A stretch of 32,000 bases of DNA. It comes from Candidatus Saccharimonadota bacterium (GTDB taxonomy: Bacteria > Patescibacteriota > Gracilibacteria > Absconditabacterales > Absconditicoccaceae). The notes below the pieces were generated by a model. That model ran no database searches. It worked only from the letters and a program-made list of their open reading frames with translations, and was not told where the DNA came from. The translations under genes and the position numbers were made by a program. The stretch is from NCBI GenBank assembly GCA_965231145.1, contig OZ246420.1, positions 540,001-572,000 on the forward strand. The letters run 5' to 3'. Below, in pieces: positions 1 to 32,000 of this stretch; positions within the stretch are counted from its first letter, which is position 1, and each line of letters begins with the position of its first letter.

Positions 1-884
1 TGTTCAAGAACGCTTACATGCATTGCTCTATAGCCATTGTGTGGGTCACTGATAGTAAGTCTGTTAAAAACAAGCGTCACGAGCTTTGAACCTCGTAGTA
101 CTATCTTTCTTCCAAAAGGCATATTTTCCGCTTCTCCGCCCTTAATAAACCTCGATCCAAGAAATATTTTCGTCTCAGGATGTTTTGCTATCATCGCATG
201 AAACTCTTCCATATCGGAAATATCCATCTGTTGATCCGCATCATAGGTAATGATCCACTCTATATGCAATTCTTTCGCATGATGTCTCAAGAAATGTAAT
301 CCTGTCTTATTTGCAGCTCCTCCTCCTCTATTGATAGGATGTGAGATAACAACAATGGTTTTTTCTTTATATTTTTCCTGTTTCTTCTTGATTTCTTCGA
401 CCGTATTATCTGTACTACCATCATTGACTATCACGATAGTGCTGTAACCAGCACCGATGATCTCATCGATCACATACCCAATAGTTTTTTGTTCATTATA
501 TGCTCTTATGAGGAATGCATATTTTCCTTTTTCTCCATGATGAGCTCCATGCGAAGGCATAGCAGTACGCTCGATCGCAAGTGCACCGACGAGTCTTGTT
601 GTATGAAATTTCTGCTTCGTGAGTTCATTGAGCAGCTCAAAGTAAAAGTATCCTAAGACAATGAGTGCTCCATAGACAATAATATCTGCCACTCTTGCTA
701 CTCCAAATGTATTGGCAAATTTCTCCTGAAATCCTGGGTAGAAAAGCGATGCGAGGATGATAGCAGCTCCGCCGACAAATATAAGAAAATGGATGAAATT
801 AAGCTTTCTTCTCTGCAATCCATCTATAGCAAACAGCAAAAACAGTATACTGGCAATAATCAGTATAAAACTCAATGGACTCAT
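1..884 (-). CDS. Family 2 glycosyltransferase with an N-terminal DUF2304-like membrane segment; the C-terminus runs off the window start
   Basis: Reverse translation from ATG at 882-884 gives MSPLSFILIIASILFLLFAIDGLQRRKLNFIHFLIFVGGAAIILASLFYPG... (two hydrophobic helices). This is followed by AFLIRAYNEQKTIGYVIDEI..IVIVNDGSTDNT..ISHPINRGGGAANKTG..YDADQQ, which are GT2 motifs. It is missing from the ORF track because no stop lies inside the window. Confidence 0.75.
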   Translation of the reverse strand, partial: MSPLSFILIIASILFLLFAIDGLQRRKLNFIHFLIFVGGAAIILASLFYPGFQEKFANTFGVARVADIIVYGALIVLGYFYFELLNELTKQKFHTTRLVGALAIERTAMPSHGAHHGEKGKYAFLIRAYNEQKTIGYVIDEIIGAGYSTIVIVNDGSTDNTVEEIKKKQEKYKEKTIVVISHPINRGGGAANKTGLHFLRHHAKELHIEWIITYDADQQMDISDMEEFHAMIAKHPETKIFLGSRFIKGGEAENMPFGRKIVLRGSKLVTLVFNRLTISDPHNGYRAMHVSVLE

Positions 885-999
885 CTGTTTTTTTACAAAT
901 AAAAAAATCTACCAGTAATTGGAGATTTTTTAGTCATTTAGCCATAAATTGCAATGAAAAGCTTATGAACAGCCTAGGCTGATACGCTACACTTTTTAG

Positions 1000-2190
1000 C
1001 TATTTCTTATCTTTTATTTCAACGGTAAACGCTTGATCATACACTTTCACCTCTATCTTATCCCCTATCCCTAATCCCTCTATCCTTTTCTTAGTCATAT
1101 ATTCTCCATTGCTCAAGAGCAGTGCATAGCCACTTTGGAGCATCTTTTCTGGCGATGTCGCCATAATCGTCCCATACCAGCTGTTAATATGAAATCTTGT
1201 CTCACGGACAAAACGTCAGAGTTTTTCACTGATACTACTATTCCAGAGTTCAATATTATTTCTTATCTCTTCTTTCTTATTTTTTATATTTTGAGCAATA
1301 TTTTCATAGAGAGTAAGAAGATGTCCTTCCCACATCTGCATAAGCTCAATAAGTTTATATGCTCCATCGGTAGGAGTCTTCGCGCCATATCGAGCAATAT
1401 CCTGTAGAATAAACTTATCAGGCGTGTGACCAATAGCTACAATGACTGGCACTGGCATCAGACAGATTCCTTTAGCGATATTGAGATCGTTCTGCCAGAT
1501 CATACCACTACTCTCTCCACCTCCACGGATGATAGCGACAGCATCTATTTTCTTTCACGCTTTTATGTCAGCATAAATCTTTTGCAATTGTCCATGTACT
1601 TCGTCCATAGCGTTGTTTCCATGGATCGCACAGAAATAGTTCTCATACGCTACAGCATAACCACTATGTTTCATCACTGTTTGAAAGTCTTTGAGCCCTA
1701 CAGCCGTTTCTGAAGAGATAATAGCAACTGTATAAGATGGATATCATGGCTGAAGTTGCTTGTTATTGTACGCTATGCCGAGTTTCTGCAGTTCTAGAAG
1801 GATATCATCCTGTTTCTTTTGTAACTGCCCTATCGTAAACTCGGCGCTGAGTTCTTTAATCACTATGCTGAAGCCATGTTCCTGGTGAAAAGAAAAATAG
1901 CCATGAAACAGTATCTTTGCTCCGGCAAGTTCACTCAATGCGCGAAGCTTCGTATTTCTAAGAAATGCATGGACAATAGCCTCGTCGAAAATACAAGCTT
2001 TTGCCTTTGCTTTCACCTTGCCAGCTGCATCGTACTCAATAAGTTCTAGATAACTATATTTTCATTTTTGTTGCACTTTAATAAGTTCACTCGCACACCA
2101 AAAATCAAACCCTGCAAAAAGAGTCTTAAAGCCTTTATCTGCTATTTGTAATATGTCGGAGAGTTTGTATTCGATCATATCTTTAGGCAT
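1000..2190 (-). CDS. xseA: Exodeoxyribonuclease VII large subunit, rejoined across 4 in-frame TGA codons
   Basis: ORF fragments 1216-1503 and 1744-2016 plus flanking pieces share one frame. Motifs seen: QQK[TGA]KYSYLELIEYD (matches sGHxYFxLkD), IAIISSETAVGLKDF, DAVAIIRGGGESS, VPVIVAIGHTPDKFILQDIARYGAKTPT. The C-terminus LQSGYALL...GDKIEVKVYD ends at TAG (1000-1002). The start could be 2190 or 2178. Confidence 0.85.
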
Positions 2191-2245
2191 TTACAATAAA
2201 CTGACGACAATACTAATGGAAATCTTTCCATAGAAAAGAGGAAAA

Positions 2246-2272
2246 CAAAAAAGTCTCCGAAGAGACTCTTTT
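2246..2272. terminator. Bidirectional intrinsic terminator hairpin downstream of pyk
   Basis: Sequence aaaaaaGTCTCcgaaGAGACtctttt: a GC-containing stem flanked by an A-run and a T-run. On the minus strand it is followed by UUUUUUGUUUUCC. Confidence 0.55.
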
Positions 2273-2338
2273 CATGTTAATATAAATGATTACTCATTGT
2301 TTAATTTAGAATTCAACATTTAAAATTTAGAATTATTA

Positions 2339-31273: not shown

Positions 31274-31289
31274 TTGTTATGTATTATGG

Positions 31290-31736
31290 TTATTTGATTT
31301 CAATTCCCATATTTTTTGCTGTACCTGCGATGATTTTCACGAGTGAATCCATCTTTGCAGTGTTCATAACAGGCTTCTTGATCTCTGCAATCTCTTCAAG
31401 ATCTTTCTTAGAAAGAGTACCGATCTTTGTCTTGTTTGGAGTAGCAGAACCTTGTTTCTGCTTAAGTTTCCACAAAAGAAGATGCGATGTAAGTGGAGGA
31501 AGAATTTCCATGTCATACGTTCTGTCTGAGTACACAGTAATCACTGCTGGAACTTTTACGTCTGTCCCACCAAATTTTGCTGCGATATCTCTTGTTTTAT
31601 CATTAAATTCCTTGATGAATGTTCCGATATTTACACCATTTTGACCAAGGATAGGACCCACTGGAGGTGCTGGCATAGCTTTACCGGCAGTCACATGGAG
31701 GGTAAATTTTTTCTGAATTTTCTTTACTGGAGCCAT
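31290..31736 (-). CDS. rplK: 50S ribosomal protein L11
   Basis: Intact 148-aa ORF: KFTLHVTAGKAMPAPPVGPILGQNGVNIGTFIKEFNDKT. Confidence 0.95.
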   Translation of the reverse strand: MAPVKKIQKKFTLHVTAGKAMPAPPVGPILGQNGVNIGTFIKEFNDKTRDIAAKFGGTDVKVPAVITVYSDRTYDMEILPPLTSHLLLWKLKQKQGSATPNKTKIGTLSKKDLEEIAEIKKPVMNTAKMDSLVKIIAGTAKNMGIEIK

Positions 31737-31775
31737 TGTTATAATAAATACAAGTAAAACGATACGCTGAACACA

Positions 31776-31850
31776 GTTTATAAAGTTTATAAAGTAGAAA
31801 GTTTATAAACCATAGAGGTTTTAACTTTACGAACTTTAAGAACCTTTAAC
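31776..31850 (-). terminator. GTTTATAAAG word-repeat hairpin between the upstream gene and rplK (probable terminator on the minus strand)
   Basis: gtttataaagtttataaagtagaaagtttataaacc pairs with ggttttaactttacgaactttaagaacctttaac. Several mismatches become G-U pairs only in the minus-strand (sense) RNA. Confidence 0.45.
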
Positions 31851-31861
31851 TGTCGTTAGCC

Positions 31862-32000
31862 TTATTTACCAGTAAAAAGCTTTCTAATATACTTTTTATG
31901 TGCCTTATACTGACTGGCATCATCTTGGATCATCCAAAGGTCTGAACCTAACTGGATGAAGACGTTAACCTTTACATCTTTGTACTGCGGTAACTCGACG
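31862..32000 (-). CDS. C-terminal end of an unidentified protein; the gene continues beyond the window
   Basis: The open frame from the window edge reads ...VELPQYKDVKVNVFIQLGSDLWMIQDDASQYKAHKKYIRKLFTGK and ends at TAA 31862-31864. Confidence 0.4.
   Translation of the reverse strand, partial: VELPQYKDVKVNVFIQLGSDLWMIQDDASQYKAHKKYIRKLFTGK

Follow-up and report, generated by a model that had tools for sequence, protein, structure and literature searches.

The stretch of DNA analyzed here (32,000 nt, referred to as the window) is a chromosomal segment of an Absconditabacterales-type bacterium, and the analysis concerns the meaning of three of its codons, TGA, CGA and CGG. Gene models were built with TAA and TAG as the sole stop codons, which gave 26 genes on both strands covering 88% of the window bases (G+C content, 37.9%); in-frame TGA codons (n = 89) were spread over 19 of the 26 gene models, and 32 CGA or CGG codons were present. 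The meanings of the three codons, obtained from aligned residues and codons, and the lineage were derived in this analysis. As judged by sequence comparison, the window is very probably DNA of an uncultured Absconditabacterales (candidate division SR1) bacterium in which UGA is read as glycine, CGA and CGG are read as tryptophan, and translation ends at UAA and UAG only. The features referred to below are as follows.

1..32000, no strand: whole segment, 26 genes, stops TAA/TAG, TGA very probably Gly and CGA/CGG very probably Trp
23207..24451, + strand: murA, 414 codons, 7 TGA including 24092-24094 (FP[TGA]FPTD) and 24386-24388 (LR[TGA]YE)
24581..25720, + strand: alr, 379 codons, 3 TGA (25463-25465, GYYE[TGA]LPR) and 3 CGA/CGG
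25785..26927, + strand: gene for an HtrA/DegP-type protease, 3 TGA, Trypsin_2 domain
19158..19808, + strand: gene for an M50/site-2 protease, 5 TGA (19275-19277, 19350-19355 as TGG-TGA, and 19425-19427 among them) and 2 CGA (19233-19235 and 19548-19550)
4683..5975, − strand: gene for a PINA-like ATPase carrying a KH domain at its C terminus, TGA at 4893-4895 as the final G of the GXXG loop (IIGKG[TGA]E)
1000..2190, − strand: xseA, 4 TGA (2062-2064 is codon 43) and 1 CGA, Pfam Exonuc_VII_L match
20707..21777, + strand: prfA (RF1), 3 TGA, PAT motif
14094..16313, + strand: clade-specific gene of 739 codons, 5 TGA and 5 CGG (15873-15875, 16104-16106, 16116-16118, 16125-16127 and 16176-16178)
18040..19074, + strand: nusA, 1 TGA, Pfam NusA_N and KH_5 match
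30413..31736, − strand: rplA and rplK (L1 and L11), no TGA in the window copies
8667..13562, − strand: open reading frame (ORF) of 1631 codons, 28 in-frame TGA, no Pfam domain above threshold
21890-22372 and 22488-23018, + strand: two orphan ORFs between prfA and murA

All 25 complete genes ended in TAA (23 genes) or TAG (2 genes) and none in another codon, as had been claimed in an earlier note on this DNA (the original prediction), and the protein lengths agreed with those of homologues. Because TAA and TAG together numbered 725 in the two other frames of the same genes, or approximately 3.9% of positions, runs of 350-1639 codons free of both are not due to chance. Homology to proteins of solved structure continued unbroken across the TGA codons in MurA (residues 2-411 of 414), Alr and RF1 (residues 2-352 of 356).

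The standard code, combined either with broken genes (pseudogenes or sequencing errors) or with isolated recoding (selenocysteine or programmed read-through), would explain why standard-code gene callers do yield fragments here, and ARAGORN labels tRNA(UCA) genes as tRNA-SeC. This explanation has a practically negligible probability. Every one of the 89 interruptions of the standard-code reading is a TGA, and neither TAA nor TAG nor a frameshift occurs inside the genes; the earlier observation of gene fragments split by TGA only was upheld, and essential genes are hit. Moreover, homology runs on across TGA, the same positions are GGN in relatives, the TGA codons stand on Gly columns and not on Cys or selenocysteine columns, and the tRNA(UCA) genes that were found (described below) have a length of 79 nt and carry glycine identity elements. 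Selenocysteine recoding was rejected, since the 89 TGA codons in 19 genes occupy Gly or variable columns and no Rfam family reached the gathering threshold in a scan of the window.

Residues and partner codons at TGA

For the column test of MurA, 29 standard-code MurA sequences were taken from fetched loci and aligned with the window protein. The residues at the seven TGA columns were M/L, E, G (29/29), G (28/29), G (29/29), G (27/29) and G (29/29), and alignments with PDB structures also gave Gly at MurA TGA columns. Each of the 20 residues in turn was then placed at all TGA positions and scored on a profile; Gly was the best on MurA (248.7 bits), followed by Ser (237.3 bits), and Trp was among the worst (228.3 bits). 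The NCBIfam MurA model NF006873 gave 329 bits with Gly and 303.9 bits with Trp, and the Pfam MurA model gave 185.6 and 170.2 bits, respectively.

The other proteins were compared by PDB alignment and by Pfam score. Codon 295 of Alr (25463-25465) corresponded to Gly in all aligned PDB racemases, and codon 183 of HtrA to Gly in 3/3 aligned PDB chains; the remaining TGA columns of these two proteins were variable in the PDB alignments. Gly scored above Trp on Ala_racemase_C (92.3 vs 84.4 bits), Trypsin_2 (73.5 vs 69.6 bits), HD_3, and the M50 family (48.3 vs 42.8 bits, with Arg at CGA/CGG in both cases). The KH_1 and KH_2 domains of the ATPase encoded at 4683-5975 were found only with Gly at TGA and were lost with Trp. 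Among database matches listed for M50, Alr and the 739-codon protein there was no standard-code outgroup, all matches being of the same group, and for these proteins the Pfam and NCBIfam score comparisons and the PDB alignments took the place of outgroups.

Two related genomes served for the comparison of codons. The closest genome in a GTDB-based collection was a Candidatus Absconditabacterales metagenome-assembled genome (MAG), designated L005, of which 21 kb was compared; its RF1 was 69% identical and syntenic, and 15 window proteins were matched. GCA_030429145.1, designated L085, was a closer relative (NusA, 92% identical; MurA, 81% identical). Organism-named database homologues of window proteins were SR1, Absconditabacteria or Gracilibacteria, and together with the best genome match they agree with the Gracilibacteria/Absconditabacteria-type organism that the original prediction had named. 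Window TGA codons stood opposite GGN (18), TGA (2) or other codons (10) in L085, and the 142 TGA codons of L005 stood opposite GGN (86) or TGA (7), among others, in the window; TGG was the partner of TGA in 0/224 aligned pairs from the two genomes. In L005, TGA-TGA-CAA encodes GGQ, the RF1 motif that is conserved universally, and the ATPase's Walker A glycines are TGA as well; the KH loop of the ATPase reads GGA-TGA in the window vs TGA-GGT in the L005 orthologue. The L11 segment PAPPVGPILGQNGVN of the window appears as PAPPV[TGA]PIL[TGA]QN[TGA]VN in L005, where Gly codons of L1 and L11 are TGA. Such exchange between TGA and GGN is the pattern expected of synonymous glycine codons.

A reading of UGA as tryptophan according to NCBI code 4 was weighed with the same data. 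Code 4 is used by Mycoplasma and Spiroplasma and by some insect endosymbionts, and gene callers often pick it for contigs of this kind; the window resembles these organisms in having UGA as a sense codon and in being from a low-GC bacterium, and differs from them in the residue, which is glycine, and in its unrelated lineage. Many public M50 and Alr homologues do show W at TGA columns, and Ala_racemase_N and XseA score marginally higher on Pfam with W. Among the best 120 homologues of M50 and of Alr, invariant Gly columns appear as G/W mixtures: columns 40, 66 and 90 of M50 are occupied almost exclusively by G or W in 120 clade homologues, and the column of Alr codon 295 holds W 81 and G 37 in the best 120 homologues. 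At these otherwise invariant columns G is the only alternative to W, and the W-rich sequences contain 5-7% Trp; such W residues are table-4 translations and not real Trp. Codons 149 and 212 of xseA are G or W in the closest homologues. Against code 4 stand also the absence of any TGG partner in the 224 TGA pairs, a loss of 20-25 bits by MurA and of the KH domains when W is used, and the separate use of TGG, which directly adjoins a TGA at 19350-19355, as had been pointed out earlier. UGA as Trp was therefore rejected, W being among the worst residues on MurA with drops of 15-25 bits and no TGG pairs, and code 4 is considered extremely improbable.

Some observations weigh against Gly at every TGA. 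Several TGA codons stand on columns that are not Gly, for example codon 88 of MurA (M/L). The RF1 TGA codons 124 and 241 correspond to Ala in 63/79 and 77/79 standard-code RF1s, respectively, and the residue scan on RF1 only favoured Ala (503.0 bits) over Gly (498.3 bits); RF1 alone was accordingly not used as evidence for Gly. When the MurA and RF1 scans were summed, Gly was still the best (747.0 bits vs 739.0 bits for Ala). Codons 124 and 241 of RF1 are also TGA in L005. From the alignments, the two positions look like a lineage-wide replacement of Ala by Gly near the GGQ region.

The glycine reading of UGA across the window, put forward in the original prediction, was thus reproduced by the Gly columns of MurA, Alr and HtrA, by the residue scan and by exchange with GGN without TGG. 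The eight codons that it cited (8/8) hold an in-frame TGA on the strand given, including TGG-TGA at 19350-19355. Its placement of these codons on conserved glycines held for seven of the eight, which fall on Gly columns or on clade columns of only G and W, and failed for codon 43 of XseA, the column of which is variable (N 27, S 13, G 10, P 6 and K 5 in distant homologues). The KH loop at 4893-4895 does not belong to NusA; it is part of the PINA-like ATPase with a KH domain encoded at 4683-5975 on the minus strand, which matched NCBIfam PRK13764 (PINA-like ATPase) with 489 bits.

Residues and partner codons at CGA and CGG

When all codons were compared, TGA, CGA and CGG alone deviated from their standard meaning. 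Eleven window CGA/CGG codons could be aligned to L085, where they stood opposite TGG (5) or CGA/CGG (6), and window TGG codons stood opposite TGG (13), CGA (7) or CGG (1). CGT, CGC, AGA and AGG were never found opposite CGA, CGG or TGG in this comparison. In the 739-codon gene, 4/5 CGG codons were TGG in L085 and the fifth was CGA. In the comparison of the window with L005, the 18 pairs with CGA/CGG on one side only had W (7), F (3), Y (2), L (2), I (3) or V (1) on the other, and R or K in none. At codon 143 of RF1, which is Trp in 78/79 standard-code RF1s, the window has TGG and L085 has CGA.

Family columns were examined with the database sequences, in which CGA/CGG is always translated as R; window TGG codons, like CGA and CGG, stood on columns of W and R or of aromatic and hydrophobic residues. 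The two M50 CGA columns contained W 90 / R 29 and W 54 / Y 34 / R 19, and the five CGG columns of the 739-codon family contained W 68 / R 33, R 65 / W 50, F 68 / Y 40, L 96, and L 56 / I 39; the columns of CGT and AGA codons, in contrast, contained R and K only. The 32 CGA/CGG codons of the window lie in Trp, aromatic or hydrophobic columns and in a few variable ones. With Trp instead of Arg at these codons, the Pfam score was raised by 6.5 bits for M50 (54.8 vs 48.3 bits, with Gly at TGA) and by 2.6 bits for HD_3, and the Trp share of codons rose from 0.66% to 1.0%. Trp at CGA was supported by the M50 columns, the L085 pairs and RF1 codon 143, and Trp at CGG by the 739-codon gene, through its TGG partners in L085 and its family columns.

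In public homologues of the proteins encoded at 19158-19808 and 24581-25720, CGA/CGG was translated as Arg throughout, which gave W/R mixtures.

Plain NCBI table 25, in which UGA is glycine and CGA and CGG remain arginine, fits the TGA evidence equally well, and the Pfam scores of Ala_racemase_N, XseA and GT2 are 0.5-1.5 bits higher with Arg. Further points in its favour are the run CGA-CGA-ACN-CGG in u173 (the ORF at 21890-22372), which resembles a basic patch, and the retention of CGA/CGG on conserved Arg columns in L143, a metagenome contig with in-frame TGA genes. It is nevertheless quite unlikely. In the two relatives, window CGA/CGG was never opposite AGA, AGG, CGT, CGC or Lys codons, and the partners were TGG or CGA/CGG only (L085) or Trp, aromatic and hydrophobic residues (L005). 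The family columns are W/R or aromatic, whereas true Arg columns are R/K, and M50 gains the 6.5 bits given above with Trp.

Other points tell against Trp at every CGA/CGG. The Pfam net gain for Trp over the window CGA/CGG codons was modest (about 6 bits), with some domains slightly worse (changes outside M50 and HD_3 were about 1 bit either way). The Alr CGG codon 160 lies in a polar variable column, which is uninformative, and for the run in the orphan ORF at 21890-22372 RRTR is a more natural reading than WWTW. In L143, two conserved Arg positions of NrdR are encoded by CGA/CGG; Trp is therefore not a universal meaning of these codons among bacteria with UGA as Gly, and in the L143 lineage they are probably still Arg. 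Ambiguous decoding would also be compatible with the sequence comparison.

Known codes and the decoding apparatus

NCBI genetic code 25 is the code of candidate division SR1/Gracilibacteria with UGA as glycine (Campbell et al. 2013 and Rinke et al. 2013, both cited via PMC8629427). The window agrees with it in UGA as Gly, in UAA and UAG as the sole stops, in the Absconditabacterales lineage and in the presence of RF1. It differs in that the table keeps the other 61 codons standard, with CGA/CGG as Arg, and in the window these two behave as Trp. The label "code 25" given in the original prediction was accordingly correct for UGA and for the stops, and incomplete with regard to CGA and CGG.

The combination of UGA as Gly with CGA and CGG as Trp was predicted in Absconditabacteria with Codetta (Shulgina and Eddy 2021, eLife, PMC8629427), and a 2026 paper (PMC13092985) takes Trp to be the established meaning of CGA/CGG in Absconditabacterales. 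The three reassignments are very probably all present in the window, along with a low G+C content, depressed CGN Arg codons, AGA as the main Arg codon, and CGA (22 per 10,000 codons) and CGG (12 per 10,000) rarer than TGG (66 per 10,000). In the aligned Pfam domains of PMC8629427, CGG was below 7 per 10,000 in every species except one; the higher window value was counted over all 26 genes of a 32-kb sample and not over Pfam domains. The kind of evidence also differs, being codon exchange among three related genomes and not Pfam columns. According to PMC8629427, CGG means Trp in some Gracilibacteria and Arg in others, and the L143 result is in line with this mixed meaning. In the literature consulted, the change of CGA/CGG to Trp rests on computational prediction, which the window confirms independently, on a small scale, by comparison of related genomes. 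Both code changes have already been described for the group; the window represents an ordinary member of a known recoded lineage and contains no new kind of system.

RF1 is the release factor specific for UAA and UAG. The only release-factor gene within the window is prfA, which scored 453.4 bits on TIGR00019, above the cut-off, and 261.2 bits on the prfB model, below the cut-off; in PDB comparisons it scored 338 bits with RF1 and 196 bits with RF2. In the mechanism suggested by the literature on the group, UGA would be read by a tRNA-Gly with anticodon UCA, RF2 would have been lost so that nothing terminates at UGA, RF1 encoded in the window would handle UAA and UAG, and CGA and CGG would be read by tRNAs of tryptophan identity with anticodons UCG and CCG. 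A point that weighs against this reading is that searches of the window, of the organism's Logan contigs and of the sequence fetched from the two related genomes yielded no tRNA gene; because of this, and because absence of prfB is a property of the whole genome, the decoding tRNAs and the loss of prfB are inferred only.

Metagenomes were scanned with a tRNA-Gly(UCA) pattern, and 4 of the 120 stretches returned carried a tRNA(UCA) gene. The four contigs (L143, L094, L117 and L139) were of low GC, and the tRNA(UCA) genes, 79 nt long, had G1:C72, C2:G71, G3:C70, U73 and an encoded CCA. The three of these contigs that were examined all had genes bearing in-frame TGA. In L143, TGA stands at Walker A glycines, and the tRNA(UCA) (region 2639-2799) lies 6 nt from a tRNA-Gly(GCC) and was drawn by ARAGORN with a 6-bp anticodon stem. 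None of the four tRNA(UCA) genes was attributable to the window organism, and they support the mechanism at the level of the group only.

Annotation and the genes between prfA and murA

The practical value of these assignments lies in annotation. The standard code breaks 19/26 genes of the window into fragments, and Logan gene calls from the same organism give RF1 in fragments of 55, 106 and 104 residues and also divide MurA, Alr and NusA, in accordance with the earlier expectation that standard-code annotation of this DNA would fail. One Logan contig of the same organism was called with an alternative table. Table 4 puts Trp at the 89 positions read here as Gly, and many database entries of the group are translated in this way; table 25 puts Arg at the 32 positions read here as Trp.

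The segment between prfA and murA (21778-23206) contains two orphan ORFs, each of which has a promoter-like upstream element CAATTATTGACAT and a hairpin/T-run terminator. L085 lacks both ORFs, and its murA directly follows prfA. The organism occurs in runs ERR4405439-41, and Logan contigs of at least two of them (ERR4405439 and ERR4405441) stop just past the second orphan ORF. The two ORFs (21890-23018) contain no TGA and 7 CGA/CGG in 336 codons, a 7-fold window density (Fisher p = 1e-4), including the run CGA-CGA-ACN-CGG at 22163-22174 in u173. No homologue of the two ORFs was found with Pfam, PHROGs or phage tblastn, and u173, u191, the 1631-residue protein and other orphans gave nothing usable in these searches. 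From codon composition it could be supposed that these genes are recent DNA from a donor with CGA/CGG as Arg and UGA as stop, or that CGA/CGG is decoded ambiguously in the lineage, a supposition that we regard as unlikely. If the first of these is true, the orphan island would represent DNA that has passed horizontally from one genetic code to another and whose codons have not yet been adjusted.

Some further observations concern individual genes. In neither L005 nor L085 is the 1631-codon ORF (8667-13562) present at the syntenic position, which lies between the genes of 446 and 739 codons. The match of the ATPase (4683-5975) to PRK13764 begins only at profile position 151 of 613; the protein seems to be without the N-terminal PIN part, and the frame stays open for only about 29 codons upstream of the chosen start. 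The 739-residue protein (14094-16313) has 333 database homologues, none with a Pfam domain, and appears to be a conserved, lineage-restricted protein to which Pfam assigns no function, every organism-named match of its family being SR1, Absconditabacteria or Gracilibacteria.

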